From: Verrucomicrobia bacterium UBA1727
GTDB lineage: Bacteria; Verrucomicrobiota; Kiritimatiellia; RFP12; UBA1067
Reading direction: 5' to 3'
DNA length: 64,000 nucleotides
NCBI GenBank assembly: GCA_002315875.1
Contig: DCIL01000013.1
Location: forward strand, 3,168 to 67,167
Positions 30,050 to 59,087 of this stretch are shown here, one piece after another (positions within the stretch are counted from its first letter, which is position 1; the number at the start of each line of letters is the position of its first letter). The notes under the pieces are model-generated. The model ran no database searches and was not told the DNA's origin. It saw only the letters and a list, made by a program, of their open reading frames with translations. A program made the translations under genes and the position numbers.

Positions 30050-30396
30050 TTCTGGGGCTCCATCTTATATTGGACGGACGTCTTGCGGACATCCATGCGG
30101 GAAAGAACGGCGCTGAGCCGTTCGGTTGCATTGGTAAAGGAAAGCGCCACTTCAGTCGCGACTCCGCCGCGGGACGCAAGGACGATTCGATGCTCGGGAC
30201 GCCACCCGTAGGCGCGGACGTGGCCAGTAAAGCAAACCTCCGCCTGCGCGTGGGACTGAGCATAGACACCTTGAAACGCAAAAATCGGTTGCAGGTCGCC
30301 CGCCTTCTCGTAATCGAGCGGCGCGACCGGAACCGCCCCCGGCGGTTTCGGCATCGTCATCGACGCAAAGAAAAGAACTATGGCAAAAAGATTCAT
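30046..30396 (-). CDS. small exported/anchored hypothetical protein
   Basis: 116 aa. Hydrophobic N-terminus MNLFAIVLFFASM. Translationally coupled on both sides (1-nt overlap upstream, 4-nt downstream). No recognisable domain. Confidence 0.5.
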   Translation of the reverse strand: MNLFAIVLFFASMTMPKPPGAVPVAPLDYEKAGDLQPIFAFQGVYAQSHAQAEVCFTGHVRAYGWRPEHRIVLASRGGVATEVALSFTNATERLSAVLSRMDVRKTSVQYKMEPQK

Positions 30397-31151
30397 TATT
30401 TGTCGGCTGAAAGCGCAAGGAGTCGTGTGTCTCTACTTCCCATGATGGTCATTCCACAACCGGTCGAGCCGAGACACGAATCGTCCTGCGCAAAATCCGC
30501 CCCAGACAAGTCGCCCAGCATCTTCCAGTTCTTCGACCTTATGGAACCTGGGTCCGGTAGATCGATCCAAAGACGATCCGTACGCGTCGTGTTATACTTG
30601 TGCTTGCTCTGGCGCGAAAGCCAGTAGGTCTCGGCAATGCCCATCTTTGGGCAAAGCGGATTGCTCGTCGCCTGAAGGGCACGATGACGTACATAACCCG
30701 AGTTGCCGGTAACATAGCTGGCCGCGGTCCTCGCAAGCATATATGTGCGCTGACGGGCATAGTTGCCTGTGTCACTATACTGCCATTGTCCGGCGACGAA
30801 CATCGTCCACGGCGCATCCGTCGGATTCGACGCGATCGCGCGGGAACTGCCGCCATTCGGCAGGATACGCACCGAATTGGTCTCCATGAGCGTCATCGGC
30901 TCACGCTCGGCCTTGCGGCCCGGCTTGTCGATTGCGGACATGATCACGGAGGCCGCAGTGAGGTCTTTACGACGCTGGGAATCCTTGTAGGCGACGAGGC
31001 GCGCGGCATCGAGGCCGTGCTCGGCGAGCGAAAGCTGATCGCGCGCTTTCATCGTAAACTGCCAGATGAATGAAAAGATCAGGATGGCGACCGGCAATAC
31101 GATCACCGTCTCCATCAACACGCTCCCGCGATGTGAGCTTTTCATTTCCAT
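30396..31151 (-). CDS. TadE-like pseudopilin
   Basis: 251 aa. N-terminal TadE/TadG signature HRGSVLMETVIVLPVAILIF (G-x4-E-x-hydrophobic helix). Confidence 0.65.
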   Translation of the reverse strand: MEMKSSHRGSVLMETVIVLPVAILIFSFIWQFTMKARDQLSLAEHGLDAARLVAYKDSQRRKDLTAASVIMSAIDKPGRKAEREPMTLMETNSVRILPNGGSSRAIASNPTDAPWTMFVAGQWQYSDTGNYARQRTYMLARTAASYVTGNSGYVRHRALQATSNPLCPKMGIAETYWLSRQSKHKYNTTRTDRLWIDLPDPGSIRSKNWKMLGDLSGADFAQDDSCLGSTGCGMTIMGSRDTRLLALSADK

Positions 31152-31152
31152 G

Positions 31153-33285
31153 TCAATGCCTGATCAACCTTTCGGCGTCGTCAAAGTTAAGCGTCGTCGA
31201 GCCCTCGGTAAACGGCAACGGACCATGAACGGTGCCGATACGCTCCTGAAGCTGAGGCGCTGACTTCCTCAATTCCGAAGTCATCCAATTGCAGGTCATG
31301 CCGGACACGATCGGCACGTGAGCTCTCCACCCAGGCGCGGCGGCGTCGGACACACCCAGTCCGGCGAACTTGGCCTTCTCACCCCTCATCTCCGCCCCGA
31401 AACCATAGACAGAGCTGAACGCCGCGGCAAAATCACCACTCGGATTGAGCGGAGTCTTCGCCTTATTCCAGCCATCCATACCCGAAGCGCGGAAGGACAC
31501 GAGCGTCGGCTCCCAATCGGTCGTGCACATGCTGCCTTCGGGATGCGTGGCGGTGATGGTCGGCTGCAGTTCGTAAACGCCCTTCTCGCTGCGGGGAGCG
31601 CAACGCGCCGCGGCCACCGCATAGAGGAAATTCGGCGCCTGCGATCCCTCGAAGATAGTCGCCGTCGCGCTGTCTTCAGTCGAAATATGGGTATTGAAGA
31701 TCTGATAGATGCTCAGACCGTCCATACGATTGATGAATTCGCGCAGGGAGCTGGTGATGTCGGAACCAAACGCCTGCCCCTTCGAGCCGAATACGCGCAG
31801 CGGATTCGGATTGTCCCTCGCCAGCAAGACACGGATGGATCCGCGGCGATCAAAGTAGGCGGGCGAGAGCCGGCGGCCCTTCGCGCCAATCACCTCGCCA
31901 TAAATCGGCTTGCCGCCACGGACGATGAGATTACGACCGAAATTATTATCATAGCGCTTACCGAAGATCGTAGCGAATGCAGTACCCTTTTTATATCCGC
32001 CGATATGCGCCTTGCCAATGATTTTTACCGGCTCGAGACAGATGTGAAGTCCGAAAAGCCAGAGTTGTGCATAGCGCTTCCAAAAGAAGGAATACTCACC
32101 ACTCAGATATTTGGAGCCGTCGAAGTTAAGCACACGCTGAGGTCCATCATTGGGATCGTAAAAACCGTCTTTTACTCGTTGTGGTTTCAAAAACTGTATA
32201 GTGTCCAGATATTTAGCGTCTTCCGCTTGCATCTTGACTTCTTTATAAATAGTAACGGCGATCGCCGCCAGAAGCGCGGCCGTGGTAATAAGTGGGGAAA
32301 TGATATATGCCCTTCTGATGACCGCGATGGCAAGCAGCATCTTGAGGGCCTTGGCCCAGGTCATCTTGAATTTATCCATGTCCTCGGTGGTTTGACGGCC
32401 TATCCAAGGGGGGCCATCCATCTTGCCGACAGCATCGGGAGCAAGTACAAGCCACTTATCGGCCCCGAGCCCCAGCACAACCTTCGGATCCGGATTCGCA
32501 AAGCCCGCCGCAGTGAAAAGCATTTTCTCATCTTCCTTCGTACACTTGAGCGTCGGCAGAATCTCCGCCGCCCGCGGCACCACGACCTGGGAATACCAGT
32601 TCTGCTTACTCGGAGCCATGTTGAGCTCGAGAATCTCGTTCGCCGCCTGATCGACGGCGCGGTCGTGTTCGTAGACCATGGCATCCAGCGCCATCACGCA
32701 CTTCTTCATGCGCTCGCCGCACTGTTCGATGCGCAATTTTGCAGGATTGATGTAGGAAGTCAGGTTCTGTGAGACGACCCGAACCTCATTGATTCCCACC
32801 ATTCGCTTGAGCCCGTTGTACTTCTCGTAATACGGGGTCGTTGTTTCGCCAGCCGTCCACTTGCCAACGCCCCAATGTTGATTCTCTATCTTCTTCTTAT
32901 CACAGCACGAATTGGCGTTGAATTTGCGACAGACATTGCGATCGTCATCAAGTTGCTTCGTGGCCTCGTTGGCGAGCCGCGCCATCGTGTAGTCCGCCCG
33001 GGCGCGCTCGCGCTCGACATAGGACCAGCCGAGAATCTGATTGACGAGACCGATGCGGCTGAAGTAGTCGGACTGGACGACCGCCGCGGAATAGGCCGCC
33101 GCGTCCGCGGCGTTCTGGAGCTCGGCCTTGCGCACCAGCGTCTCCTGCACCGCGTAGATGCAGACGGCGAGCACGAAAAGCGGCAGCATGAACGCGAGCG
33201 AAAGCGCAAGCACGACGCCCTGCTCGTCGTAAACGAGCGAGCGTGCACGCGCGGAGAGGACGGAGGCGAGGCCGAACTGTCTCAT
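31153..33285 (-). CDS. tadG: TadG-like large pilus-assembly/pseudopilin protein
   Basis: 710 aa. N-terminal hydrophobic helix followed by LQNAADAAAYSAAV, the characteristic TadG-family motif. Confidence 0.6.
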   Translation of the reverse strand: MRQFGLASVLSARARSLVYDEQGVVLALSLAFMLPLFVLAVCIYAVQETLVRKAELQNAADAAAYSAAVVQSDYFSRIGLVNQILGWSYVERERARADYTMARLANEATKQLDDDRNVCRKFNANSCCDKKKIENQHWGVGKWTAGETTTPYYEKYNGLKRMVGINEVRVVSQNLTSYINPAKLRIEQCGERMKKCVMALDAMVYEHDRAVDQAANEILELNMAPSKQNWYSQVVVPRAAEILPTLKCTKEDEKMLFTAAGFANPDPKVVLGLGADKWLVLAPDAVGKMDGPPWIGRQTTEDMDKFKMTWAKALKMLLAIAVIRRAYIISPLITTAALLAAIAVTIYKEVKMQAEDAKYLDTIQFLKPQRVKDGFYDPNDGPQRVLNFDGSKYLSGEYSFFWKRYAQLWLFGLHICLEPVKIIGKAHIGGYKKGTAFATIFGKRYDNNFGRNLIVRGGKPIYGEVIGAKGRRLSPAYFDRRGSIRVLLARDNPNPLRVFGSKGQAFGSDITSSLREFINRMDGLSIYQIFNTHISTEDSATATIFEGSQAPNFLYAVAAARCAPRSEKGVYELQPTITATHPEGSMCTTDWEPTLVSFRASGMDGWNKAKTPLNPSGDFAAAFSSVYGFGAEMRGEKAKFAGLGVSDAAAPGWRAHVPIVSGMTCNWMTSELRKSAPQLQERIGTVHGPLPFTEGSTTLNFDDAERLIRH

Positions 33286-33911
33286 TTGGACGCCACCTCC
33301 CCCTGAACTGTCGGCATCGCGAGGCCGGGTGAAGTCAAAATGCGAACGCTACGTCCCTTAAGCACCAGCGACGGTACGCCGTGACAATCGACCGTCATAT
33401 CACCATCGGCCGTCCTGAGCACCTGGGCAATGATCGGAACATGGAGCGGACACTTGAAGGATACTTCGCAAAAGAGGCGGCCGATCTCCTTCTTGGCATT
33501 CACCTCCTCGAGCTTGATTGAGACCTGATCTTCAATCCAGCCCGCACCCCAGATCGGAAACCATCCGTCCGGCTGCAGTGAAGACGAGCGGAAATCGTTA
33601 GCCGGCAACTTCGTCGAGCCGAGACTGAACGAGCCGTTCTTGACATTCGACTTCAGATTGTCGAGATTATAGGAATTGTAGCTCCAGGAAACGGGAGTGA
33701 GGATGCGCTGGGCCGCGGCAAGCGCCTCGGCATTGCGCGTGCCAGACTCAGTCACTTCGGCCACGCGGACCGCTACCTGAGCCGCATGCTCGACCATGAG
33801 CCGCGCGTAGGCAACAAAGATAAACTGGAAACAAGCGAGGAAGAGCATCAGCACGACCGGCACTGCGATCACGGCCTCCATCAGCATCGACCCTGGACGA
33901 AGGCGCTTCAT
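33282..33911 (-). CDS. tadE: TadE-like pseudopilin
   Basis: Start at ATG 33911 (MKRLRPGSMLMEAVIAVPVVLMLFLACFQF), in an ATGA overlap with the prepilin peptidase stop. TadE-type G-x4-E hydrophobic N-terminus. Confidence 0.65.
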   Translation of the reverse strand: MKRLRPGSMLMEAVIAVPVVLMLFLACFQFIFVAYARLMVEHAAQVAVRVAEVTESGTRNAEALAAAQRILTPVSWSYNSYNLDNLKSNVKNGSFSLGSTKLPANDFRSSSLQPDGWFPIWGAGWIEDQVSIKLEEVNAKKEIGRLFCEVSFKCPLHVPIIAQVLRTADGDMTVDCHGVPSLVLKGRSVRILTSPGLAMPTVQGEVASK

Positions 33912-34432
33912 ACGCACACCCTCCTGACCAGAACCCAGACGAGACCGACCGCTATCGCCACGCCGAACGGCACGCGACACGCCTCGGAATCGCGCGGCGG
34001 CAACGCTGCGCGCCCCGCGATGCGATCGTAACGGAAATCAAAGACACACCTGAGTAGATGCTTGAGCCGAGAAGAATCCACCCGACGCAGAATCATCATC
34101 GAAAAGGCGAGTACGAGACCAGCGACAGACACGACGAGCATCAACTCGACCGCGTAGCCGGAGCCGGCGAAGAGTCCCGCCGAAGTCATCATCTTCACGT
34201 CCCCCGGACCAGCCGCCCTCAGGAGAAACGGCAGGAGGAGAAAGAGAAAGCAGCAGAATCCCGAAAGGAGCGTTCCGCATCCATACGGGATTCCGCGGCC
34301 AAAGGCCAGAGCCACCGCAACCGCCGCGCCGCCGAGCGTCAAGACGTTCGGCAGGCGGCGAGTGCGGAGATCGTTCACCGCGAGGGCGATGGCCCACGCG
34401 CTGCCGATCATAAGCTCAAGCCAAGTCAACAC
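33908..34432 (-). CDS. tadV: A24-family prepilin peptidase (TadV/CpaA type)
   Basis: 174 aa polytopic. First catalytic Asp context AVNDLRTRRLPN, second GPGDVKMM (GxGD motif). Confidence 0.8.
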   Translation of the reverse strand: MLTWLELMIGSAWAIALAVNDLRTRRLPNVLTLGGAAVAVALAFGRGIPYGCGTLLSGFCCFLFLLLPFLLRAAGPGDVKMMTSAGLFAGSGYAVELMLVVSVAGLVLAFSMMILRRVDSSRLKHLLRCVFDFRYDRIAGRAALPPRDSEACRVPFGVAIAVGLVWVLVRRVCV

Positions 34433-34437
34433 GGCAA

Positions 34438-34782
34438 TTAGAGGCCGATGTTGACGCTACCGCTGATATCGCCCTTGCCACCGCTGATGCTGATGTTCTT
34501 GCCGCTCGAGCTCTTGCCGCCCGAGCTGCCGCCGGCCGCATCGCCGTGGAACGCCTTAGCGCTGGCATCAGCGTTGGAGATTCCCGACGCCGTGGCGCTC
34601 TTGGCCTCAGCCTGCTTGCTGGCAGCACCCGACGGATCGGTCATCGCCGTAGCGGCAACGCCGAACTCGTTCTTGATGGTGTCACCGAACATCATGACCG
34701 CCACGACGACCGCCGCCGCGATCATAACCGCGATAATGACGTACTCCATCATCACCGCACGCATCTTCTTGATCTGCTTCAT
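34438..34782 (-). CDS. long Flp-like pilin with Gly/Ser-rich C-terminal tail
   Basis: Start at ATG 34782. MKQIKKMRAVMMEYVIIAVMIAAAVVVAVMMF has the Flp E-Y plus hydrophobic-helix core, but Arg/Ala where the processing Gly is expected. C-terminus GGSSGGKSSSGKNISISGGKGDISGSVNIGL. Confidence 0.6.
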   Translation of the reverse strand: MKQIKKMRAVMMEYVIIAVMIAAAVVVAVMMFGDTIKNEFGVAATAMTDPSGAASKQAEAKSATASGISNADASAKAFHGDAAGGSSGGKSSSGKNISISGGKGDISGSVNIGL

Positions 34783-34816
34783 TGTTTGTTTTTCCTTTCT
34801 TGTTTTTGTTTTCTCG

Positions 34817-34835
34817 TTTTGGGGACCTCCCAAAA
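34817..34835 (-). other. small hairpin between the two flp genes
   Basis: TTTTGGG-GACCT-CCCAAAA (7-bp stem, 5-nt loop), 14 nt after the short flp stop. No U-run follows on the minus strand, so it is not a classical terminator. Confidence 0.35.
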
Positions 34836-34848
34836 TCGAAATCTTCTT

Positions 34849-35025
34849 TTACGGATAGGGCATCGCCACCACTGAAATGACGCGATGGAAAAACCCTGCC
34901 ATCTCATTGCCGAGATCTCCGAGCTTGCCGTCCGGCGAGACGATGGAGAACGACAGGAGCATCGCCATCGGCACCAGCGAGCAGAGGAGTATCACGTACT
35001 CAAGCATGATAGCGCCTCGTTTCAC
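34849..35025 (-). CDS. flp: canonical Flp-type pilin (58 aa), not in the supplied ORF track
   Basis: Hand translation: GTG(35025) KRGAIMLEYVILLCSLVPMAMLLSFSIVSPDGKLGDLGNEMAGFFHRVISVVAMPYP TAA(34851..34849). G/AIML-EY fits the G/XXXXEY Flp processing motif. The GTG start overlaps the upstream TGA (GTGA). The first in-frame ATG is at 35007. Confidence 0.7.
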   Translation of the reverse strand: MKRGAIMLEYVILLCSLVPMAMLLSFSIVSPDGKLGDLGNEMAGFFHRVISVVAMPYP

Positions 35026-37430
35026 TTCTTCCCTTCTCCTTTTTCACTTTTCCCTTTTCCATCAACTTTTTCACTTTTCCCTTTTCCTTTTTCCTTCTTT
35101 ATCCTGTCCGCTTCAAGCGCCATCGCGTGGAACTTCCAATGCGGCAGAACCATCGGGTCGCCAGGAATCGCCTCCTTCAAGATGGCGATGGACGACTTGC
35201 GCAGATCTTCGTCGGTCTCGCTGTCGCCATACGCAAGTTCGATCTCCTCAATCTTCTGACGACGGATCTTGACAAGCGAACGAAGGCGCTTGACATCTTC
35301 TTGCTTCACGTCTTTCATATCGCTCATGAGAATCTTGCATCCGAGGGCAAGCAACGCCGCGCGAGAATCCTTGCCTTCGGCAATCACCTTGTCAAGGTGT
35401 CTGATACCGGTAGCGAGACGTCCGAAGCGCCACTCGATATCCTTGCGAAACTCCGACACCATACCCCGATTGAACTCCTGAAACTCCTTTGAAACCAGAA
35501 AATCGTGCGCCCGGCGGAGTGTGACGAAGAAGTCACGGGCGACGAACAGCAAGGGCGTAAAGCCCGAACCGTTCAATTCGGAAAGCGGCACGTCCTCGGG
35601 ATAGGCAAGCGGTAACTCGTGCAGATACGACCACATCCATTCAATGCCAACCACCTCGTCATAATCGCTGACCGGCTTGGTGCGACGACGATTCGGAGGT
35701 TCCATGTCGAAGGTATCGCAACCGAGCACGGATTTCCAGTATTCCTGCCGCATAAAGTCAGCCGAGACCTTCTGTAACATTTCCTTCGGCGGCTTGGCCC
35801 GCTTGAACTGACGTATGATCGAACTCAGTCGCGCGGCCACGAGCTTTACCTGTGCATGTCGCTTGACGAAATAACTGCGCAGCGTCAGCAAGTGATCGCT
35901 GACAAGGCAGTCATCGACCGAGGGAATTTCGACGTGACGATGGATGAGATCGGGCTGCATCTCGACGATGCACGTCTCGTTGGAGGCGATCTGACGGCAG
36001 GAGTTGAGCAGATCGCCAAGCGGATCGCCCACCTGTCCGGCATAGATACGCAGGAAGCCGCCCGAATCACGTTCGATCTTCCTGATGTTGTTGTAGAGCG
36101 CTTCGAGAGCCGCCACATCGGTAGAACACTTGCCGACCACGCCGTTGATCTGCTTCACCGCGGCCTGATATTCGCGTAAGGACTTCACCGATTCAACCAG
36201 TTCCTCCTTGAGCGGCTTGATCCACTCGCGCTTCTCCTCCTTGAGCCACTTCTCATCCCCAATGCCGAAGTCCACGATCCTTTTTTCGATATTCTCGAGT
36301 TCGCCTTCCGTGGTGCCGTGGCCGGAGAGCATCTTCTGGAGCGAAAAGTAGAGGTTCAGCATCTGCTCGGTCTGATCTTCCTCGGCCATTCGCTCGCGCG
36401 ACTTCTCCGGACGCCACGACCATTCCTCGGGCACGTCGGCGCGCAGGCGGCCCATGACATCGAGCGCATCGGCGAAGCCGGATGAACGCTGGGTACGGAC
36501 GATCTCCTTCAACATTTCCCAATCCCGGTAGGTATGATGCCATCTTTCGATATACCCACGATAGAGGGCAATGATATCCTTATGATCCTGAGCGCCGCGG
36601 GCGTCATGAATTTCTTCCAGCTTCGCAATTCCCTCATCGAAGCGGTCCTGAGCGATGAGTGACATGATTTCCTGGCCGACTTCAGTCCACTCGGGAACCC
36701 GCAGCTGGAGAAGCGCATAAATGCCGACACAGATCGCCGCGGTGACGAGCGCAAGAATGACCTGAAGTGAGGCATTGGAGCGCACGTGAAGAACGGTGCG
36801 GTCGAGGAACCGGTAATCCCAAATGGAGAAGCCGATCACATCGCCGTTCTTGACCATGCGCGCCTTATCCGTCAGCCGCTCGCCGTTCACGAACGTGCCG
36901 TTGCGGCTCGCGAGATCCTTCACCCAAAGCGAACCGCGCTCGTCAATCGAAAGCTCCGCCTGATGGGCGGCAACGATGTCGCTTTTGATCACGAGATCAT
37001 TGTCGGGCGCCGAGCCGACCTTGAAGAGCTTCTTGGTGACGGAGACCATCTTGCCCTTGGCCTCGCCGTTCATGCCCTCGAGCCGGTGATACTTCTCGCG
37101 CGCCTTCTCAATCTTCGCGACCGTCTTGACAGTGATCTCGGAATCGCCGACCGCGATCCGGTCGCCGACCGCAAGTTTGCCACCTGTGAACGGACGCGCA
37201 TTCTTAAAGATGGGAGCGCCGTCGATCGGTTCGATCTTGACCGAAAGGTCGCCGTGGGCAATCATCACGGCATGACGCGGGAGCATCGTCATGTCGGCGT
37301 CGGAAGGACGCCACCGCGCGCTTTCACCGCGGCCGATTTCCACCGGACCTTGAAAGTCGTCGGCCGTGAGCGTGTAGAGGGGCTTGCCCCCCGACACGAA
37401 AGTAAGTTGCAGGACTTGCTTCTTAGCCAT
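35022..37430 (-). CDS. double-FHA-domain membrane protein with large helical C-terminal domain (module-1 component Y)
   Basis: 802 aa. FHA1 (VEIGRGES...LPRHAVMI...IAVGDSEITV). Canonical FHA2 (FKVGSAPDNDLVI..AAHQAEL..LASRNGTFVNGERL). One TM (VILALVTAAICVGIYALL). Helical C-domain and a KG-rich tail from a 27-nt repeat. Confidence 0.75.
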   Translation of the reverse strand: MAKKQVLQLTFVSGGKPLYTLTADDFQGPVEIGRGESARWRPSDADMTMLPRHAVMIAHGDLSVKIEPIDGAPIFKNARPFTGGKLAVGDRIAVGDSEITVKTVAKIEKAREKYHRLEGMNGEAKGKMVSVTKKLFKVGSAPDNDLVIKSDIVAAHQAELSIDERGSLWVKDLASRNGTFVNGERLTDKARMVKNGDVIGFSIWDYRFLDRTVLHVRSNASLQVILALVTAAICVGIYALLQLRVPEWTEVGQEIMSLIAQDRFDEGIAKLEEIHDARGAQDHKDIIALYRGYIERWHHTYRDWEMLKEIVRTQRSSGFADALDVMGRLRADVPEEWSWRPEKSRERMAEEDQTEQMLNLYFSLQKMLSGHGTTEGELENIEKRIVDFGIGDEKWLKEEKREWIKPLKEELVESVKSLREYQAAVKQINGVVGKCSTDVAALEALYNNIRKIERDSGGFLRIYAGQVGDPLGDLLNSCRQIASNETCIVEMQPDLIHRHVEIPSVDDCLVSDHLLTLRSYFVKRHAQVKLVAARLSSIIRQFKRAKPPKEMLQKVSADFMRQEYWKSVLGCDTFDMEPPNRRRTKPVSDYDEVVGIEWMWSYLHELPLAYPEDVPLSELNGSGFTPLLFVARDFFVTLRRAHDFLVSKEFQEFNRGMVSEFRKDIEWRFGRLATGIRHLDKVIAEGKDSRAALLALGCKILMSDMKDVKQEDVKRLRSLVKIRRQKIEEIELAYGDSETDEDLRKSSIAILKEAIPGDPMVLPHWKFHAMALEADRIKKEKGKGKSEKVDGKGKSEKGEGKK
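35040..35096. repeat. two copies of a 27-nt CT-rich unit at the 3' end of the double-FHA gene
   Basis: ctttttcacttttcccttttcc occurs twice, 27 nt apart. Encodes GKGKSEKVD / GKGKSEKGE. Shares a 20-nt identity with 12396..12415 in prc. Confidence 0.85.
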
Positions 37431-38644
37431 CAGTTCCCCCTAAATCCCCTGAGTATCTTCTTGCGGCGTACGTCATCCCAGGCATTGAACTTGTCAAGCG
37501 CCTCCTTGCGAATCTGGTGCGCGACAAATCCGTTGCCCTCGCGCACGGCGCAGATGAAGGAAAACGCGCGACGATTATACCAGATCTCCTGCTCTGCGCG
37601 AAACCGAAGCCACTCGCGAAACGCATCATTGAGAAGAGCCCTGTCATTGTCGCGCTTGGCGCGTACGATGAGCGACTTGATGTTCTGTTCGATCTCGTTC
37701 CACTGCGCCATTGCGAAATTGTGCGATAGCATGTTGCGCACCCTGCGGAGCAAGCGGGTGGGGTCTCCCTCTGTGATTTTTTCCGGCACCTCAAAGTGAA
37801 AAGAACACAAGGTGTTGTTGATCTTAAAACACCGTTCGTTTCGAATCACATTGAGCGCTCGCGTCCAATCGCGGCTACGCACCTCGCGAATGCAGACGAA
37901 GTCGCGGTCGTTGTCGCGGAAGTAAATGAAACTTCCGGCCCAGACATTGCCGTCGTGCGGACGGAAGTAGTCGCCCTCAATCGCTGGCCAGCCGGCTCCG
38001 TTGGTCTTGATGAAGCCGATATGCTCGGTGGCGGACTGGAAACGCCACCCCGCATCAGTCTGTTTCTTCTTCCAGGCGGCGAACGACTCCTGCAAGGTGT
38101 GATCCCACCAGTTGGAAATCGTATGCGAACTAAAGGCAAGTACGAACGGGCATTCGTAATAGCGGCCGATCTTCGTCTCGACAGCCGCGGTCATGTTCGA
38201 CGGATTGGCAAAGCCGCGCATACCCTCGCAATTCGGGAAATAAAGCTCGAACGCCGGATCGACGTTGCGATAGGCGAAAGTGATCGAGCCATCATCAAAG
38301 TTATAATCGTAGGCGCCGGGCCAGGTAAAGACGCTTTCGGTGAGCGAAAGTCTGTACTGCGCAAAAATAAAGACACCGACAGCAACAATACCAGCGATGA
38401 ACCAACGACGGACCATGCGCTTGGTGCGCGGATCGGCATTGAGCTTACGAAGCTCCTTGATCTCCGCTTCGGACGCCATGCGCTCGGGGCGATCACGACG
38501 CCGCGCAGTCGGCTCGTCAGCGCCTTCCGCAGAAGACGGTTCTGCGGCGGGGACACTCTCGGTTACCGGCTCGGGGGCAACCTCGTCCTCATCTACCGTC
38601 TCGTCCAGCGTAATGTCTTCGCCCTTGTCTTCGGTCATCGTCAC
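37430..38644 (-). CDS. bitopic membrane protein with acidic N-terminus (module-1 component X), function unknown
   Basis: 404 aa. Acidic Thr-containing N-terminus (DITLDETVDEDEVAPEP), one TM (WFIAGIVAVGVFIFAQY), Trp/aromatic-rich domain. Overlaps both neighbours. Confidence 0.5.
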   Translation of the reverse strand: MTMTEDKGEDITLDETVDEDEVAPEPVTESVPAAEPSSAEGADEPTARRRDRPERMASEAEIKELRKLNADPRTKRMVRRWFIAGIVAVGVFIFAQYRLSLTESVFTWPGAYDYNFDDGSITFAYRNVDPAFELYFPNCEGMRGFANPSNMTAAVETKIGRYYECPFVLAFSSHTISNWWDHTLQESFAAWKKKQTDAGWRFQSATEHIGFIKTNGAGWPAIEGDYFRPHDGNVWAGSFIYFRDNDRDFVCIREVRSRDWTRALNVIRNERCFKINNTLCSFHFEVPEKITEGDPTRLLRRVRNMLSHNFAMAQWNEIEQNIKSLIVRAKRDNDRALLNDAFREWLRFRAEQEIWYNRRAFSFICAVREGNGFVAHQIRKEALDKFNAWDDVRRKKILRGFRGN

Positions 38645-39426
38645 ATTCCCCCCTTCGCCATCTGAAACTTAAGAATCACCGGTGTAATGATGATCACGAA
38701 CACGGCCGGCATGATGAACATCGCCATCGGCATGATCATGATTGAGGGCGCCCGCTGCGCCTTCTGCTCGGCAATGTTGAAACGCACCTTGCGCATTTCC
38801 TCGCCCTGAATCTCCATGGTCTTCGAAATCGGCGCACCCATCTCGCTGCCGAGCGCGATCGCCGATGCGAAACTCGTGAACTCCTTGATCTTGAGACGCT
38901 GCGCCATGTTAAGGAGCGCATCGATACGTCCGACGCCGAGTTCCGTCTCGCGAAGCATCATCTGAAACTCGTCCGTCAGCGGACCGCGAATGCCAAGGCC
39001 GACGAAGTAGCGGAGCGAAGCACCGAAGTCGAGACCCGCGCGCATCGCCGAAGTCAGAAGGTCAATCGCGAAGGGCAAGGCGCGGAGAATGGCCTCCTGA
39101 CGATCCTTAGCCATCGACTGAATCGAACTCTTGGGCAGCACCCAGCCCATGAAGAGCCCCAACGGAATCGCCATCACCAGCGTCATCGCCCGCTTGGGCT
39201 CGGGTACGCCCATCGCGAGGAACGTGCAGAAGCCCATGAGAAAAGTCGCCGCGGCAACCTGACAGCAGTACACCTGATGAGGAGCAAGCCGCAGGTTGGC
39301 AATCTGGGTGAGATCGGAAATCTCCTGATCCTTTGCCGCGGACGAGAGCGCCTTGCCGACCCCCATGCCGTTGAGCATGGCTATCGGTTTCTCAAGGAGA
39401 CGGAAAATAGTCGGCAATTCCTGCAT
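38641..39426 (-). CDS. tadC: TadC-like inner-membrane platform protein (T2SS-F family)
   Basis: 261 aa. T2SSF-type core LPFAIDLLTSAMRAGLDFGASL ... LGSEMGAPISKTM, C-terminal TM helices. Confidence 0.75.
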   Translation of the reverse strand: MQELPTIFRLLEKPIAMLNGMGVGKALSSAAKDQEISDLTQIANLRLAPHQVYCCQVAAATFLMGFCTFLAMGVPEPKRAMTLVMAIPLGLFMGWVLPKSSIQSMAKDRQEAILRALPFAIDLLTSAMRAGLDFGASLRYFVGLGIRGPLTDEFQMMLRETELGVGRIDALLNMAQRLKIKEFTSFASAIALGSEMGAPISKTMEIQGEEMRKVRFNIAEQKAQRAPSIMIMPMAMFIMPAVFVIIITPVILKFQMAKGGM

Positions 39427-39427
39427 T

Positions 39428-40345
39428 TTACACCTCCACCGCCGTAATCTTCTTGATGACCGTGTAACCGACTGTGATCAGCACCGCGTCCACACCGATG
39501 GCGATCCACCCCGTAGTCGTAGTCAAGAGCGGCAACATCAGTTCGGTATCGACCGCAAGCAGCAGCAGGAAGGCCGCCACCGGCGCAAGGGACATCGCCA
39601 GCGCCTCGAAGCGTCCCTGCGCGGTGAGCGCCGAGAGCTTGCGGTGGAAGTCATCACGCGAACGAATGGTCGAAGTCATCTTCTCCAAGACCTCGGCGAG
39701 CGAGCCGCCGGACGTCATCGTAAGCCGGATCGAGACGATCATCAGCTGCAGATCCTCACAGGGAATGCGCCGGTACATGCGCGAGAGCGCTTCGGCGAGA
39801 TCGACACCGAGATGGTATTCGCGCTGGACGATGCGAAGCTCTCCGAAAAGCGGCTCGGCCGCGTTCTTCGCATAGACCTCGAGCGCCTGCGGCAGGGCCT
39901 GACCGGCCTTGAGGCCGTTGGAAAGTCCCATCGAAAAGTCAAGCATCTGGGCCTGGAAGGCAAGCGCGCGCTTCTGCACCTTTGAAACGTAGTGCTTGCG
40001 CGGCAGACGCGAGGCGATGAACCCGGCGGCCACGATGGCGATGGCGATGATCGCGAGATTGAAGACCTCGAACGCAATCAGCGTCGCGAGCACGATGACC
40101 ACCGCAAAGAACGCGAAACCGACCTGAAGGCGGAAGAGCTGTCCGCTCGTGATGAAGTAGGAGAGCGAGTTGCCCATGCCGCTCTGCTTGGCTTCGTCGG
40201 CATCGAGCTTCTCGGCCCGCTCCTCGGTCAGCGCCCGAATCCACACGGCGAGGGACATGACGCCGAGGCCGATCGCCACGAACATCAGCGCGTAAACGCC
40301 GTAGCGATTGAGAAGTTCAAAATTTATGGACGCGAGAATGCTCAT
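39428..40345 (-). CDS. tadB: TadB-like inner-membrane platform protein (T2SS-F family)
   Basis: Start at ATG 40345 (MSILASINFELLNRYGVYALMFV). T2SSF core FSMGLSNGLKAGQALPQAL ... MTSGGSLAEVLEKM. Confidence 0.75.
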   Translation of the reverse strand: MSILASINFELLNRYGVYALMFVAIGLGVMSLAVWIRALTEERAEKLDADEAKQSGMGNSLSYFITSGQLFRLQVGFAFFAVVIVLATLIAFEVFNLAIIAIAIVAAGFIASRLPRKHYVSKVQKRALAFQAQMLDFSMGLSNGLKAGQALPQALEVYAKNAAEPLFGELRIVQREYHLGVDLAEALSRMYRRIPCEDLQLMIVSIRLTMTSGGSLAEVLEKMTSTIRSRDDFHRKLSALTAQGRFEALAMSLAPVAAFLLLLAVDTELMLPLLTTTTGWIAIGVDAVLITVGYTVIKKITAVEV

Positions 40346-40352
40346 TTTTTCG

Positions 40353-42101
40353 TCAACCCTCCGGCACGAAGACACCCATATCCAACCTGAGGTCGCCGCT
40401 CTTGCGCAGCTCGTCCACAAAGACCGGAATGTTGCCTGTCGGATTGTGCTTGCCCACTACCTTGAAGTTTTCGTCAAAGCCCTCCTGATCGAACGAGAAG
40501 ATGTCCTGCATCGTCACGATGTCACCTTCGCGGCCTGTTATCTCGGTGATCTTCACCACCTTGCGGCTGCCGTCCGGCAGACGCGTCTGCTGCACGATGA
40601 GGTCGATAGCGCTCGCGATCTGCTCGCGGATAGCGGACGACGGCAGGTCAAACCCCGCCATCATCACCATGTTCTCGAGACGACCGAGCGCATCGCGCGG
40701 CGTGTTCGCGTGCAGAGTCGTAAGCGACCCGTCGTGACCGGTGTTCATCGCCTGCAACATGTCGAGCGCCTCCGCACCGCGGCATTCACCGACGACGATG
40801 CGGTCGGGACGCATACGCAGCGTGTTGATGACGAGATCGCGAATCGAGACGCGGCCCTTGCCTTCAACGTTCGCCGGACGCGCCTCGAGACGGCAGAGGT
40901 TCTCGTGATCGAGCTTGAGTTCCGCCGAGTCCTCGACGGTGATGACGCGCTCGCCGTAGGGGATGAACTGAGAAAGGATGTTGAGAAGCGTCGTCTTGCC
41001 CGAGCCCGTACCGCCCGAGACGACGATGTTCTTCCTCACACGCACGGCCTCGCGCAGGAACTCCGCCATGCCGTTGGTCATCGAACCGAACTTGACGAGA
41101 TCTTCAGGACCGAGCTTCTTATCGGAGAACTTACGGATCGTCACGTCGGACCCGTCGAGCGCCAGCGGCGGAATGATCGCGTTCACACGCGAACCGTCCG
41201 GCAAACGGGCGTCAACCATCGGCGACGCGGCGTCCACATGTCGGCCGAGCGGTTCGACGATACGCTGGATGACGACCTGGAGCTGCGCTTCATCGCGAAA
41301 CTTCGTAGTGGCGCGCTTGATGAGTCCCTTCTGTTCCACAAAGACGTTCTCGGGACCATTGATCATGATTTCGGAAATCGTCTTGTCGCGAATGAGCGGC
41401 GAGAGCGGACCGAATCCGACGATCGAATCAAGGAGCGCCTGACGAAGCTGCGGCACCGGCACGGAATCGGGAATGATGTGCTGGAGCTCGCGCAACACTT
41501 CATCGAGCATCGCTTCGGCCTTGGCGGCCATTTCCTTGCCCGAAATCGCGTCTTCGCCGGAAATGTTCATGCGCTCGAGGATGCGGTCGTTGATCTTGCG
41601 CATGACCTGCAGCACCTGAGGCGTGAAAAGATCTCCGTTCGATCCCTCCGGCTCGTAAAGCGGCAACCGCGGTTTGCCGTTCTCGTCCTTGGGCTGCTCC
41701 TTGTAGACCGCCTTCGAGACGGTCGGCTTGGCGACCGGCGGCGGCTCCGTGGCAGTGACGGGAGCAGGCGCGGACTCCGCCTTTTTAGAGGTCATCGAGG
41801 CAAGCGCTTCGGGATTGGCGATGAAGCGCAACGTCGCCGGCCCGATTCGGATCAGGTCCAGCTGCTGCACGGCGGTGATCGCCTCGATTCGCTGATCGTT
41901 GACGAAGGTGCCGGAATGACTGCCGGAATCCTCGATAAACCAGGCCGAGCCGAGCTTGCGCAACACGGCGTGACTGCGGGAAACCGTCTTCGCCGGCACG
42001 CGGAGATCCGCCGAATCGGAGCGACCGATGACCAGCGTGTCGCGTCCCTCGACGCTCACGTTCGTCTTGTTTCCATCAACTGTCAGTTCGATGAACATCA
42101 C
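40353..42101 (-). CDS. cpaF: FHA-domain / CpaF(TadA) secretion ATPase fusion
   Basis: 582 aa. N-terminal canonical FHA ([45 protein letters not shown]). Pro/Ala linker. CpaF core with [52 protein letters not shown] overlap with the secretin stop. Confidence 0.85.
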
Positions 42102-43666
42102 TTGTCCTCTTCAAACCAGCGCCAGAAATAGAACACCTTGTACCACGGATCCGACTGACGGATACGCTCCTTGACCGCCTTCGGAAGCTCGCGGCTCGCC
42201 GTGCGCTCGAGGTGTCCCGTCTCCTCGCTCGGACGGCGACGGAGCGGATCAAACTCGTCCGCGTATTCCGGCGAAATGAGCACCAGCGTATAATCGTCCG
42301 AGACATTCTCTTGACCATACGAGGTAAACCAGCTGACAATCGGAATGTAGCGAAGAACCGCAAAACCGGAAGGAGGCGTCTCAGTATGACTGACCTTATG
42401 GGAACCGCCAATAGCAATGGTCTCGCCGAGACAGGCGACGACCGGCATGCTGGCCGCTACCTTACTCTGGGTGTAATCGTCCCCCGACGGTTGAGGATTG
42501 CCGGAATCCTCGAGATCAAGATCAAGTTTCACTTCGTCAGCGTGGGTAAGCACGCCCTCGACGGTGATCTTGAAACCATACGAAACCTCCTTGACATTGC
42601 CACCGTTAACACCCGTCACCTTCATCATCAGCGTGCCACCATCTTGAAACGTGGCCTTCGCCGCCTTCTCTCCGTTGGAGTTGAAGGTGACATGACCTGA
42701 CTTGCGATGGGTGGCAAGGCCGTTCGATGCCAGGAAATTGAGCATGCCATTGACGCCGCCAGTAAAGCCCAGACGGGCGGTACGAAGATTCGCATTGCCA
42801 TCGGGATCAGCGTCTCCAAAAATGCGCATCAGCTGCGTCCACATCTCGAAGTTGCCGAGCTCGCCCTTCACCGCACCGGAATTGCCGAAGGCCTCGATGG
42901 CATTTTTGCTGATAGTGAGAAAGACGACGCCGACATCGATGAGACGGTCGACCACGTAGAAGTTGGTGATGCAGGGAACGGACCCGGCGCGGGTATTGCC
43001 GCCGGTCATAGCGAGCCACGTCTGACGGCCGACGATCTTCTCGACTTCGGCGACATCCTTCTTGTTGAAGAAGTAGCCGGTGATCGTCATCACACCGCCG
43101 GCGTACTTCATCTCGATGCAGCCGGGATTATCACTCGTCGCTTCGGTCACCATGCGGTAGCCGCTCTGCTCGAGGATCTTGCCGAACTTGGCGAGCAGAT
43201 CCTTGCCGGGCGTGAAGACGACGTAGTCGAAGCAATACTGCTGATAGCGCGAGAGCACGAGGTGATAGAGATCCCAGTGCTCGGTCTTCGAGATTTCGCC
43301 GCGGAGACAGATCTTGCCGTTGTTGACCATGATCTCGACCTCGGGCACTTCCTCGAGATCGCGACCGAGCGCCTTGATGATCGGCTGCAGGGCGTCCACG
43401 ACCGTCACCGAATAGCTCTTGATGTTGTCAGTGCCCATGAGCTCGACGATCGCCGTGCCGGCGCTCACGCCCATGACGTTGTAGCTCTTGTTGCCGGACC
43501 GGCGGAGCTTGACGCAGGTCGACTCGCAGCGGACTTCCTGAATCGGGAAGGTCGCGGCAACTTCGATCGTATCGCCGATGACGACCGACACCTGCTCCTG
43601 ATCGTCACCCGCGCCCCAGAGGACGGCGCTGGCGGTCATTACGAACAATGCGATGAGTTTCTTCAT
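42098..43666 (-). CDS. cpaC: CpaC/RcpA-type secretin
   Basis: 522 aa. Signal peptide. CpaC-type N-terminal beta domain (VSVVIGDTIEV...YNVMGVSAGTAIVEL). Secretin core (IDVGVVFLTISKNAIEAFG ... GETIAIGGSH ... LRYIPIVSWF). About 60-aa charged/aromatic C-terminal extension. Confidence 0.75.
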   Translation of the reverse strand: MKKLIALFVMTASAVLWGAGDDQEQVSVVIGDTIEVAATFPIQEVRCESTCVKLRRSGNKSYNVMGVSAGTAIVELMGTDNIKSYSVTVVDALQPIIKALGRDLEEVPEVEIMVNNGKICLRGEISKTEHWDLYHLVLSRYQQYCFDYVVFTPGKDLLAKFGKILEQSGYRMVTEATSDNPGCIEMKYAGGVMTITGYFFNKKDVAEVEKIVGRQTWLAMTGGNTRAGSVPCITNFYVVDRLIDVGVVFLTISKNAIEAFGNSGAVKGELGNFEMWTQLMRIFGDADPDGNANLRTARLGFTGGVNGMLNFLASNGLATHRKSGHVTFNSNGEKAAKATFQDGGTLMMKVTGVNGGNVKEVSYGFKITVEGVLTHADEVKLDLDLEDSGNPQPSGDDYTQSKVAASMPVVACLGETIAIGGSHKVSHTETPPSGFAVLRYIPIVSWFTSYGQENVSDDYTLVLISPEYADEFDPLRRRPSEETGHLERTASRELPKAVKERIRQSDPWYKVFYFWRWFEEDK

Positions 43667-43694: not shown

Positions 43695-44456
43695 TTACTT
43701 CAGCGGCACTTCCGGCAGCTCGACCGCCGTCAGGTTCTCGCGCACCTTGCGGAAGGTCGACGAATCGACGACGCCGCCGTCCTTGCGGTTGCGCGCGGTG
43801 CGGTCGTTGCGCTTGCGGAGCACGGGATAGAGCTCTGCCTGCTGCTGGGCCGCGACCAGGATTTCCGCCTGCTGCGGCGGGAGCGCCACGAGAATCGTCG
43901 AGGAGCCGCCGGTCTGGGGCTCGCGGAACTGTCCGTTCGCACCGACGATGCCCATCACGCGCACGCAGGGCATGAGCAGCGTCGTCTGCTTCGTCGCCTC
44001 GCCCATGTCGTCCGTACCCTTGCCGTCCGTCCAGCTCGCAAGAATCGCAATCTCGTCGTCCGGCAGGAGCATGGCGATGAGCGTAGGATTCGCGAACGTC
44101 ACCGGAATCACCCACTCGCCATCGTGAATCGTCTCCGCGAGCGAGGCATTCATGCGCACGTCGCTCACGAGCACGAATTCGTCCATCGCGATCGCGCGCG
44201 GAATGCGCTGACCGTAGGCGATGGCGACCTCGCCCCACTTGAGCGCATTCTTCGGCGCCGCCGCCACCGGAATGACGCGGTAGCTCAAGTCACCTTCGCG
44301 CAACTCCTGCATCGCCACGAGATCGTGGTTAGCGATACAGACCGCCATCATCTCCTCCTGTCCGGCGATTTCCTTGTCGGACAGCATCTTCGAAACGGCG
44401 TAGACCGCCGCGAGGCCCAGAATCACGGCCGCGATGAGCGGCATTGAGTTTTTCAT
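43695..44456 (-). CDS. cpaB: CpaB/RcpC Flp-pilus assembly protein (SAF domain)
   Basis: 253 aa. N-terminal anchor MPLIAAVILGLAAVYAV, SAF-like segment (VCIANHDLVAMQELREGDL), C-terminal TILVALPPQQAEILVAAQQQAELYPVLR typical of CpaB. Confidence 0.75.
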   Translation of the reverse strand: MKNSMPLIAAVILGLAAVYAVSKMLSDKEIAGQEEMMAVCIANHDLVAMQELREGDLSYRVIPVAAAPKNALKWGEVAIAYGQRIPRAIAMDEFVLVSDVRMNASLAETIHDGEWVIPVTFANPTLIAMLLPDDEIAILASWTDGKGTDDMGEATKQTTLLMPCVRVMGIVGANGQFREPQTGGSSTILVALPPQQAEILVAAQQQAELYPVLRKRNDRTARNRKDGGVVDSSTFRKVRENLTAVELPEVPLK

Positions 44457-54821: not shown

Positions 54822-54830
54822 TCCTTTCCC

Positions 54831-58180: not shown

Positions 58181-58227
58181 AAAAAAGAGGCCTTGTGGAC
58201 ATTCTGTCCAACGAGGCCCCTTTTTTG
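58181..58227 (-). terminator. intrinsic (rho-independent) terminator, potentially bidirectional
   Basis: Hairpin GGCCTTGTGGACA-TTC-TGTCCAACGAGGCC (about 13 bp with one bulge), flanked by an A6 run on one side and a T6 run on the other. On the minus-strand RNA the stem is followed by CUCUUUUUU. Lies 18 nt after the stop of 58245..59087. Confidence 0.75.
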
Positions 58228-58244
58228 TCCAATGACGATTTCGC

Positions 58245-59087
58245 TTACTTGGAGCTGTTGTAGTACTCCAGGATGCGTTTGAGCTCGCCCGTGCGGCGGA
58301 TGGTCTTCATGCCGTTATCAAAAGCATCGATCATACGCTTGGCAAGTTCGGGATTCTTGCCGGAAACGCGGAAAAGGACATCCACCTGGTCAATCGGCTC
58401 CGAAGTGCGGAAGCCCTGGACCATGCGTCGAGCGGTGTGATGCTGCACCTGAAGGATATCTTCGTTATTGGTCACGAAGGCATCAATCTCGCCGCGTTCC
58501 GCCAGCAAGCACGCCTGTTCCTCGGAGTCATGACCGGCTACGACGCGGATATGCTTGGGATCATCCTTCCATTTCTTGCGCAGCTCTCTGATGCACTTCG
58601 AATCGAGGTCATCATCCTCCACACCGATGCGGAGCTTGTCGAGAGATTCGGGACCGGCATAACGCCACTTGCTCGTCCGCGGCAGATAGAGAAGGAGCCG
58701 ATGGGAGCCGATAGGTGTCTTTGCGGTCGGATGCTTGCTCAAGTAGGGATGCTCACCGTAGTTGACGCAGACTGCTGTCGGATCCTCGTCCAGGAACTGC
58801 ACGTAATCCGAGATGTCGTCACCCCTGCACACGAACTTCGCCTTCGGGAAAATCGCGCGGATGATGTCGAGGAAAAGTCCGTTGCGATTCGTGATCGGGT
58901 CGACGCAGGAATAGGGACGCCACTGGTAGAAGTAGACCGTCGGCGCGAGATCGGAGACCTCACGATTCGCCATATCCGCCGACACGGTGGACGTTTTCTT
59001 CATCCCGTCCACTGCGTCGAGGAGCAATTTCAGTCCGAACAGAACCGCTACGGACACGATTAACAGTATGTTGATTTTCTTGATCAT
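58245..59087 (-). CDS. periplasmic substrate-binding-protein-like (type 2 PBP fold, family-3-like), membrane anchored
   Basis: 280 aa. N-terminal anchor. Segments GLFLDIIRAIFPKAKF, LRIGVEDDD, EIDAFVTNNEDI, LKRILEYY resemble SBP_bac_3-type proteins. Last gene before the terminator. Confidence 0.45.
   Translation of the reverse strand: MIKKINILLIVSVAVLFGLKLLLDAVDGMKKTSTVSADMANREVSDLAPTVYFYQWRPYSCVDPITNRNGLFLDIIRAIFPKAKFVCRGDDISDYVQFLDEDPTAVCVNYGEHPYLSKHPTAKTPIGSHRLLLYLPRTSKWRYAGPESLDKLRIGVEDDDLDSKCIRELRKKWKDDPKHIRVVAGHDSEEQACLLAERGEIDAFVTNNEDILQVQHHTARRMVQGFRTSEPIDQVDVLFRVSGKNPELAKRMIDAFDNGMKTIRRTGELKRILEYYNSSK

Follow-up and report, generated by a model that had tools for sequence, protein, structure and literature searches.

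Why does one stretch of 64,000 nucleotides from Verrucomicrobia bacterium UBA1727 (the whole of which we call the window) carry the same run of five Tad pilus genes twice, and what are the two membrane proteins, here named X and Y, that close the run each time? Tad pili are widespread colonisation and predation devices. Our answer is that the window represents two complete Tad (type IVc) pilus loci which diverged long ago, both of which lack TadZ, are rich in FHA domains and resemble the Kil system of Myxococcus xanthus, and that X and Y are dedicated bitopic subunits of the inner membrane; we give this reading a probability of roughly 0.55.

The order cpaF-tadB-tadC-X-Y, which had been noticed in two copies from the sequence alone, was confirmed, and every open reading frame (ORF) named at that time lies on the minus strand at the coordinates listed below. 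X and Y are translationally coupled within this run, with overlapping stop and start codons.

The two tad loci

Locus 1 lies wholly inside the window. Its genes, in the order of transcription, are as follows.

43695..44456, minus strand: CpaB/RcpC (NCBIfam pilus_cpaB, E 2.4e-21; Pfam RcpC)
42098..43666, minus strand: secretin, CpaC/RcpA (Pfam Secretin, E 1.9e-8; 25-27% identity with the secretin of locus 2)
40353..42101, minus strand: FHA-CpaF1 motor ATPase (Pfam FHA at residues 24-87, E 9e-16; T2SSE at 230-505, E 3e-64)
39428..40420, minus strand: platform protein TadB1 (Pfam T2SSF, E 2.4e-12; 31% identity with TadB2)
38641..39426, minus strand: platform protein TadC1 (Pfam T2SSF, E 5e-14; 111 relatives in the protein collection)
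37430..38644, minus strand: X1, predicted bitopic inner-membrane protein of 404 aa (no Pfam or NCBIfam family; AlphaFold2 model)
35022..37430, minus strand: Y1, 802 aa (Pfam FHA only, E 1.8e-18)
34438..34833, minus strand: Flp-type pilin with a hydrophobic N-terminus (Pfam Flp_Fap, E 1.7e-4)
33908..34432, minus strand: prepilin peptidase, A24 (Pfam Peptidase_A24, E 2.4e-13)
30396..33980, minus strand: pseudopilin block, made up of the next three genes
33282-33980, minus strand: TadE-like protein (Pfam TadE, E 2.4e-8)
31153-33285, minus strand: TadG-like protein (Pfam Tad, TadE/G-like, E 3e-5)
30396-31151, minus strand: 251-aa protein (no Pfam match)

The Flp_Fap match of the pilin is weak (21.8 bits against a gathering cutoff of 32.2), and the true start of TadB1 is probably an ATG some 75 nt into the ORF. 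The relative closest to locus 1 (L004; surveyed loci are numbered in this way) has its TadB annotated in two pieces, ORFs of 150 and 133 aa (L004 9088-9999), which may be due to a frameshift or an assembly error.

Locus 2 is cut by the end of the window, within the gene for its motor.

63638..64000, minus strand: C-terminus of CpaF2, last 120 codons (from the translation; the gene runs off the window)
62880..63626, minus strand: TadB2 (Pfam T2SSF, E 1.3e-13)
61979..62869, minus strand: TadC2 (Pfam T2SSF, E 1.8e-14; 27% identity with TadC1)
60904..61977, minus strand: X2, predicted bitopic protein of 357 aa (transmembrane helix at about 20-37; no FHA domain; no Pfam, NCBIfam or PDB match)
59084..60907, minus strand: Y2 (AlphaFold2 model and Foldseek; no Pfam or NCBIfam match)
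58245..59087, minus strand: Z, signal-anchored protein of 280 aa, a conserved accessory gene that overlaps the stop codon of Y2

The DNA past the window end was reached through TadB2, on JGI contig 3300001598|EMG_10000202 (92,657 bp; L001). There the full CpaF2 has 533 aa (L001 8388-9989; T2SSE, E 3.5e-58), and its gene is preceded by those for a secretin (496 aa), RcpC (267 aa), a 286-aa protein, an A24 peptidase and pseudopilins (TadE-like, 264 aa; TadG-like, 391 aa; TadE-like, 883 aa). Two claims of the original prediction fall with this. Secretin, pilins and peptidase are not confined to the first module, and the idea that two motors share one outer-membrane conduit is refuted, as module 2 belongs to a complete second tad locus with its own secretin. 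The idea of a single conduit was an artefact of the window edge, because the secretin, pseudopilin and peptidase genes of locus 2 sit just beyond it. The further question of whether the CpaF of module 2 also carries an FHA domain can be answered with yes: the N-terminus of the CpaF2 family aligns to the FHA domain of the CpaF1 family (hhalign 94%, E 1.4e-7), in a decayed form.

Both loci thus show the components by which a Tad system is recognised. A T2SSE ATPase and two T2SSF platform proteins are found by Pfam in both modules; a secretin and RcpC/CpaB are present in both loci (the locus 2 copies in L001), as are Peptidase_A24, TadE and Tad domains. The core common to both comprises seven genes, RcpC-secretin-CpaF-TadB-TadC-X-Y, and the block of pilin, peptidase and pseudopilin genes lies downstream of this core in locus 1 and upstream of it in locus 2. 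Identity between the loci, for the recognisable components, is 55% for CpaF, 31% for TadB, 27% for TadC, 25-27% for the secretin, 29% for the peptidase and 21% for CpaB (E 0.003). Judged by these comparisons, the known components of the two loci are true but old paralogues, and an ancient split is supported by the separate sets of orthologues that the two modules have in many species.

What neither locus holds is TadZ/CpaE: no ParA/TadZ-like ORF with a deviant Walker A motif is present in the window or in L001, and the secretin gene abuts cpaF in both loci. Tad systems of this FHA type are little studied, and their only studied representative is the Kil system of M. xanthus.

Retention of X and Y beside tadB and tadC

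Are X and Y fixed parts of such loci or passengers in this one? Six genomic contexts of TadC1 relatives were inspected, from 75% down to 37% TadC identity, and all read TadB-TadC-X (426-585 aa)-Y (738-821 aa, with FHA). A search of one genome per GTDB species with an alignment of the TadC1 family then gave 469 relatives, of which the best 80 were surveyed. These 80 belong to Victivallales, Lentisphaeria, Kiritimatiellae and Verrucomicrobia metagenome-assembled genomes (MAGs), mostly from gut or rumen, together with five Myxococcota loci and one Desulfobacterota locus.

The TadC-anchored loci were scored with hidden Markov models (HMMs) of the C-terminal domains of X and Y, the FHA domains being left out. 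Within the Planctomycetes-Verrucomicrobia-Chlamydiae (PVC) group, X and then Y follow tadC directly in 68 of 74 loci. The other six are cut by contig ends, so that the figure for uncut loci (Lentisphaerota, Kiritimatiellota, Verrucomicrobiota) is 68 of 68. Orthologues of X1 occur in 76 loci, with identities of 47, 29 and 23% in L004-L006, and the C-domain HMM of Y1 matches 73 loci, with Y1 orthologue identities of 44%, 25% and 25% in the same three.

For module 2 the anchor was Y2 alone, chosen in JGI metagenomes without reference to any tad gene, and loci were counted where the flanking DNA sufficed. X2 lies directly upstream in 31 of 31 and a TadC2-like gene is present in 27 of 27; Z follows Y2 in all 22 that leave room for it, and is absent from module-1-type loci. 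The context is invariant: pseudopilins-RcpC-secretin-CpaF (531-538 aa)-TadB-TadC-X2 (356-357 aa)-Y2 (586-606 aa)-Z (280-304 aa). The view that X and Y are retained partners of tadB and tadC, proposed from two copies, holds throughout these sets.

It is worthwhile to add a word on search methods. The Y2 family numbered 13 proteins in an indexed search and 54 at E <1e-3 when 1.84 billion representatives were searched exhaustively. A word-indexed protein search with the C-domain of Y1 returned the query alone, although orthologues of 44% identity were in the same collection; because these were missed, negatives of that search on charged helical proteins should not be taken as orphan status.

Whether X and Y are nameable and new has a divided answer. 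X1, X2 and Y2 indeed have no family in Pfam or NCBIfam, and PDB profile searches likewise gave none for X2 or for the C-domains of Y (which also have none in Pfam or NCBIfam), but Y1 carries FHA. In public records the proteins are called just "FHA domain-containing protein" or "hypothetical protein", yet an equivalent pair is listed in the M. xanthus Kil cluster (PMC8460266). Our literature search found no paper that characterises that pair, MXAN_4649 and MXAN_4648, and no paper on Tad systems in Lentisphaerota or Kiritimatiellota.

Architecture of X and Y

Members of the X1 family mostly (nearly all of those inspected) start with a canonical FHA domain (consensus GRSRS…DVSG.H…NLS…T.VDG), in which the pocket GR...S..H...N is kept, followed by a long low-complexity linker. 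X1 and its closest relative, in L004, have lost this domain and carry an acidic Thr-rich tail in its place (window 38480-38644, minus strand; L004 10795-11020, where it is a DVT[TA]DVT repeat). The tail could be a kinase substrate or an FHA ligand.

The AlphaFold2 model of X1, built on a 15-sequence alignment (pLDDT 82, pTM 0.71), shows a disordered acidic Thr-rich tail at 1-56, a long transmembrane helix at 72-101, a nine-stranded alpha-beta domain at about 118-270 (pLDDT >90) and a helical bundle at 295-398. Foldseek searches of the PDB match the alpha-beta domain to PsbP/CyanoP, DcrB, SciW/EagT6 (DUF1795), LpqN/MTC28 and BT_1490 at probability 1.0. The TM-scores, normalised to the target, are 0.5-0.65 for the group (0.65 for 2xb3, 0.60 for 9grx_0, 0.44-0.48 for 6e8a). 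On this model the periplasmic domain of X1 would be PsbP/DcrB-like, a generic extracytoplasmic protein-binding fold; at the sequence level, Pfam gives no match to PsbP, DcrB or DUF1795. For X2 we note that the N-terminus is conserved in its family, which supports the 357-aa start.

Two other folds were considered and set aside. A ring-building motif of the SctD/PrgH kind is not among the Foldseek matches of the periplasmic part of X1, and a ferredoxin-like domain of GspL/GspM or PilN/PilO gave no Foldseek match in X1 or Y2. PDB profile searches gave no such match either; PilN scored no better than E 0.41.

Y1 consists of an FHA-like domain (about 1-100), a second FHA domain (137-201), a transmembrane helix (about 222-243) preceded by the juxtamembrane motif FLDR.V.H.R, and a helical C-domain of 560 aa; when its N-terminus is scanned alone, Pfam finds two FHA stretches. 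The K-rich tail that had been pointed out is real in Y1, but it is not conserved across the Y1 family. In the AlphaFold2 model of Y2 (pLDDT 80), all-beta domains at 2-100 and 108-192 are followed by a transmembrane helix at 212-247 and an all-helical domain at 268-605. The best PDB matches of this model by Foldseek are all FHA domains (Ki-67, GarA, OdhI, Rv0020c; probability 1.0, target-normalised TM-score 0.56-0.66), and its helical part gives weak TPR-like matches. Y2 would thus have two degenerate FHA folds, which are below Pfam detection.

The binding pockets differ among these domains. The FHA domain of CpaF1 keeps the GR and SRSH motifs. In Y1, Pro and Ala stand at the Ser positions of the phosphothreonine (pThr) pocket, and in Y2 and CpaF2 the pocket residues are lost.

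Are the two X and the two Y proteins homologous?

BLASTP finds no similarity between X1 and X2 or between Y1 and Y2. Taken alone, this does not speak against homology, because CpaB, a shared component, is already at the limit of detection. Small-profile hhalign comparisons of the X and Y families were not significant either, and larger profiles helped for the N-terminal module of Y only. With these, the Y1 and Y2 families align at a probability of 77% (E 2e-5) over 181 columns that take in both FHA domains and run colinearly to the membrane, with a score of 53.6 against a permutation null of 19.2 +/- 3.0 (maximum 26.4). Homology of the N-terminal FHA modules of Y1 and Y2 is supported, and the fold of Y2 (FHA, FHA, transmembrane helix, helical domain) agrees with it.

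A bridge between the modules is provided by a 739-aa protein of "Lentisphaerota bacterium ZTH" (P0171). The C-terminal half of this protein matches the Y2 profile (E 1.8e-6, library-wide), and its FHA domains are detectable by Pfam (E 1e-14). Its locus (L093) reads RcpC-secretin-FHA-CpaF-TadB-TadC-X (346 aa)-Y, and the X encoded there matches the X2 HMM (E 6e-10, single comparison). Module 2 is thus an FHA-type Tad locus in derived form, with FHA domains that have decayed too far for Pfam to detect them.

Several results weigh against our reading at this point. The X1 and X2 families align at a probability of 46% (E 2e-4) with the transmembrane helix included; without it, their periplasmic parts reach a probability of 6.7%, with a score of 27.5 against a null of 17.6 +/- 3.5 (maximum 27.3; z about 2.8), and global and greedy hhalign of these domains brought no gain. 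The C-terminal helical domains of Y1 and Y2 do not exceed a probability of 8% between the PVC families, and those of PVC and Myxococcota proteins show no similarity detectable by hhalign. "One X/Y family" consequently rests partly on position and architecture. The module 1 survey, moreover, was anchored on TadC, so that X and Y homologues away from tad genes were invisible to it. The membrane topology that we assign is based on the single transmembrane helix, on the positive-inside rule and on the fact that FHA domains are cytoplasmic, and a physical link of X and Y to CpaF, TadB/TadC and RcpC is likewise one that we infer.

Could X2 and Y2 then be unrelated to X1 and Y1, bitopic proteins recruited independently whose layout has converged by non-orthologous displacement? 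The silence of BLASTP and the low X and Y C-domain scores just given would fit, as would the cross-family control comparisons, in which noise reached comparable scores. Against it stand the tandem FHA domains of Y1 and Y2, whose colinear alignment up to the membrane scores about twice the highest null value, the FHA fold in Y2, and P0171 and its locus, which link both families. The five flanking genes are clear paralogues, with CpaB at the edge of detection, and undetectable similarity is therefore to be expected in faster-evolving partners. We regard such a displacement as quite improbable.

For descent of both pairs from one ancestral pair the picture is uneven. X1 and X2 are probably homologous, by a modest lean, on the grounds of where they are encoded, of their topology and size, of an alignment that is weak but colinear, and of the bridge locus. 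The Myxococcota Y family aligns with Y2 at a probability of 38% (E 3e-4), and a C-terminal motif (…G.P.D/SP…W) recurs at a similar position in the C-domains of Y. Homology of X1 with X2 and of the C-terminal domains of Y1 and Y2 is nevertheless unproven.

Comparison with known systems

Kil is a Tad-like contact-killing apparatus of M. xanthus, with an FHA-fused ATPase (KilF), many FHA proteins of unknown function and several Tad accessory proteins missing, among them TadD, RcpB and TadG (PMC8460266). Its cluster 2 encodes KilB (RcpC), KilG, KilH, MXAN_4649 ("FHA; PrgH-like") and MXAN_4648 ("FHA; TPR") (Seef et al. 2021, PMC8460266, supplementary file 1). Our comparison was made through the loci of other Myxococcota MAGs and through the domain table of that paper, not with the M. 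xanthus sequences directly.

The likeness begins with the motor, where FHA is fused to the CpaF/KilF ATPase (well preserved in CpaF1, degenerate in CpaF2), and with the lack of TadZ. It extends to the block RcpC(KilB)-TadB(KilG)-TadC(KilH), which is followed by the FHA protein MXAN_4649 and the FHA and TPR protein MXAN_4648. The top relatives of TadC1 outside the PVC group come from Myxococcota and from one Desulfobacterota MAG. The Myxococcota and Desulfobacterota loci and L010 read RcpC-TadB-TadC-X-type-Y-type; the X-type protein has 432-470 aa, an N-terminal FHA domain and one transmembrane helix at about 150-165, and the Y-type protein has 574-856 aa, one or two FHA domains, one transmembrane helix and weak TPR matches. 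The X proteins of PVC and Myxococcota loci share a homologous C-terminal part (hhalign 93%, E 2.5e-7; score 57.3 against a null of 14.5 +/- 2.2).

In L010 (8328-15038) and in L087-L092, which are of the Myxococcota type, the RcpC gene runs straight into TadB-TadC-X-Y, without an intervening gene for a secretin or CpaF. This arrangement matches the division of Kil into two clusters.

The differences are also plain. Here there is one operon-like locus, present twice, whereas Kil is split; it is found in uncultured PVC bacteria of gut and rumen that are not known to be predators, and it includes TadG-like pseudopilins. The FHA domain is gone from X1, the FHA domains of module 2 are decayed, and this module has the extra protein Z; and, as said, the C-domains of Y have no detectable sequence similarity to those of Myxococcota.

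With canonical Tad/Flp/Cpa systems (Aggregatibacter tad, Caulobacter cpa) the loci share the Flp pilin, A24 peptidase, TadE/G, RcpC/CpaB, secretin, CpaF/TadA and TadB/TadC. They differ in lacking TadZ/CpaE, in the FHA domain on the ATPase and in the two additional bitopic proteins, which have no counterpart there.

Looking further afield, X and Y recall the type III secretion protein SctD (YscD/PrgH), in which a cytoplasmic FHA domain, a single transmembrane helix and a periplasmic domain follow one another, and Pfam Yop-YscD_cpl matches the FHA domains of Y1, CpaF1 and the relatives of X. Outside FHA there is no sequence similarity, and the periplasmic part of X1 is instead PsbP/DcrB-like with a helical bundle in its model. 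The predicted alpha-beta sandwich at about 118-270 of X1 matches that of the PsbP, DcrB and DUF1795 (Eag chaperone) proteins, but in X1 it would be tethered to the inner membrane, within a pilus machine, and fused to the bundle.

The type VI secretion system (T6SS) offers a third parallel, Fha1/TagH with PpkA/PppA, in that FHA proteins accompany an envelope-spanning nanomachine and Hanks kinases are linked to it. Fha1 is soluble, however, whereas X and Y appear to be membrane-anchored with large extracytoplasmic domains, and we saw no phosphatase and no TagH-type C-terminus.

How X and Y might act

To our knowledge, no replacement for TadZ and for alignment proteins of the PilMNO/GspLM type is known in the FHA-type branch. 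We propose that X and Y fill this place. X would consist of a cytoplasmic FHA domain (which X1 has lost and X2 does not have), one transmembrane helix and a periplasmic PsbP/DcrB-like domain capped by a helical bundle, and Y of two cytoplasmic FHA domains, one transmembrane helix and a helical, TPR-like periplasmic domain of 350-560 aa. The two would surround or flank the TadB/TadC platform as an inner-membrane scaffold or adaptor. Their FHA modules and the one fused to CpaF may jointly recruit and position the motor (the CpaF hexamer), which is the task of TadZ/CpaE in canonical systems, and their periplasmic domains may reach RcpC and the secretin as an alignment scaffold.

We suggest a scaffold because the motor and both partners carry FHA domains, because TadZ is missing and because both partners have large extracytoplasmic domains. 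That X and Y would be stoichiometric subunits is argued by their strict, translationally coupled placement after tadB and tadC, by their retention across three phyla and by the fact that module 2 keeps them in spite of the decay of its FHA domains.

In module-1-type and Kil-type systems, Ser/Thr phosphorylation might in addition gate assembly, as a layer upon the scaffold. This is suggested because the FHA domains of CpaF and of X keep the pThr-binding residues and because Hanks kinases are frequently linked to the loci. In 19 PVC loci the opposite strand carries a Hanks-kinase-like ORF at about 1 kb from the end of Y, and a Pfam Pkinase is found likewise in a further one.

Kinase-linked PVC loci: L014, L015, L017, L024, L025, L031, L032, L035, L037, L040-L047, L049 and L051; in addition L005

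In module 2, where the FHA domains have decayed, the scaffold role alone would remain and a third protein, Z, would have been added.

The same facts invite a different proposal, namely that X and Y are signalling adaptors, which would pass an envelope or contact signal, picked up by their periplasmic domains or by a linked Hanks kinase, on to the phosphorylation-dependent activation of the FHA-CpaF motor, much as PpkA and Fha1 control the Pseudomonas T6SS. The FHA domains of the X family and of CpaF1 retain the canonical pThr residues, kinase-like genes adjoin Y in at least 20 loci, and domains of the PsbP/DcrB-like and TPR-like kinds typically serve as sensor modules that bind ligands or proteins. 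A role of the PpkA-Fha1 kind is also what the authors of the Kil study propose in their discussion for the FHA proteins of that system (PMC8460266).

The binding pockets tell against both this proposal and the phosphorylation step of our own. X1 itself has no FHA domain. The second FHA domain of Y has an invariant G-S-A in place of Gly-Arg, and thus lacks the Arg in the whole family; as far as sequence can tell, pThr binding by Y is doubtful, because this domain has Ser where the phosphate-binding Arg should be. The kinase gene of the window itself, a Pkinase ORF (16792-17805, minus strand; profile positions 35-191 of 263), lies 17 kb downstream of Y1. Signalling as the principal role meets two further objections: in module 2 the FHA domains are all without binding residues, yet X2 and Y2 are kept in every locus, and strict 1:1 synteny with tadBC together with translational coupling is more typical of stoichiometric subunits. 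We hold it to be unlikely, though it is the strongest of the alternatives considered here.

TadD is a TPR protein, and the weak TPR matches of the Y C-domains raise the question of whether the periplasmic part of Y could mainly be a pilotin or secretin-assembly factor that replaces the missing TadD and RcpB, rather than a platform scaffold. The absence of TadD, RcpB and TadG noted for Kil (PMC8460266) would leave room for such a factor. All of the TPR matches, however, are below the Pfam thresholds, Y would be anchored in the inner membrane with its FHA domains in the cytoplasm, and its gene follows tadC, away from the secretin. We think this very improbable.

Returning to the scaffold, a wider claim can be made, and it is a speculative one that we rate as well short of even odds. 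A ring of X and Y could be the missing alignment or stator-like subcomplex of the inner membrane for the whole TadZ-less Tad branch (PVC gut bacteria, Myxococcota, Desulfobacterota), docking FHA-CpaF by kinase-gated FHA contacts and linking it to RcpC and the secretin. In that case the gut loci of Lentisphaerota and Kiritimatiellota might encode contact-dependent weapons or adhesion devices of the Kil type instead of ordinary adhesive Flp pili, and the giant proteins of two-partner secretion next to them could be cargo or tip partners.

Why does this matter? X and Y are two defined candidates for the replacement of TadZ and the alignment proteins, as a gene pair fixed to tadB and tadC across three phyla. 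The decayed FHA domains of module 2 amount to a natural experiment, which argues for a structural core role with phospho-control layered on in some lineages. MXAN_4649 and MXAN_4648 become a testable hypothesis in a tractable organism, and gut and rumen Lentisphaerota and Kiritimatiellota, abundant but unstudied, carry up to two such machines.

Other genes around the loci

The accessory protein Z has no Pfam or NCBIfam family. It had been described as like a solute-binding protein (SBP), a label that is unverified, as the sole hint of such a fold is that its best PDB sequence matches are SBP domains at E of about 0.5. After Z (window 58205-58240, minus strand), an A-run, a nested GC-rich hairpin and a T-run form a plausible bidirectional terminator. 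The terminator predicted at this place is thus backed by a hairpin and T-run seen by eye, but a consensus scan of the minus strand found none; the scan missed this hairpin because its loop is long.

Between Z and the next genes lie a CRP/FNR-type regulator (cNMP_binding and HTH_Crp_2; 57485-58159, minus strand), preceded by a sigma-70-like promoter, and a 205-aa lipoprotein-like protein (56789-57406, minus strand). The space between the tad loci is then taken up by a two-partner secretion pair (44460-56792, minus strand).

54831-56792, minus strand: TpsB (ShlB/POTRA)
44460-54821, minus strand: TpsA, 3453 aa (DUF5649 repeats)

In L004 and L006, too, two-partner secretion genes stand directly upstream of RcpC. 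A general linkage of such genes with tad was considered and rejected, since they flank RcpC in the window, L004 and L006 only and not in the other approximately 80 loci surveyed.

Immediately downstream of the locus 1 pseudopilins, a 2723-aa protein (21878-30049, minus strand) has two Gly-rich N-terminal modules that resemble each other, and a weak match to the Listeria-Bacteroides repeat just under the Pfam cutoff; it could be an adhesin or a tip-associated partner. Just after this giant gene comes a third T2SSE-family ATPase (20744-21820, minus strand; 358 aa), of PilT-like size and without FHA, and beside it a metallophosphoesterase with a lamin-tail domain (18684-20741).

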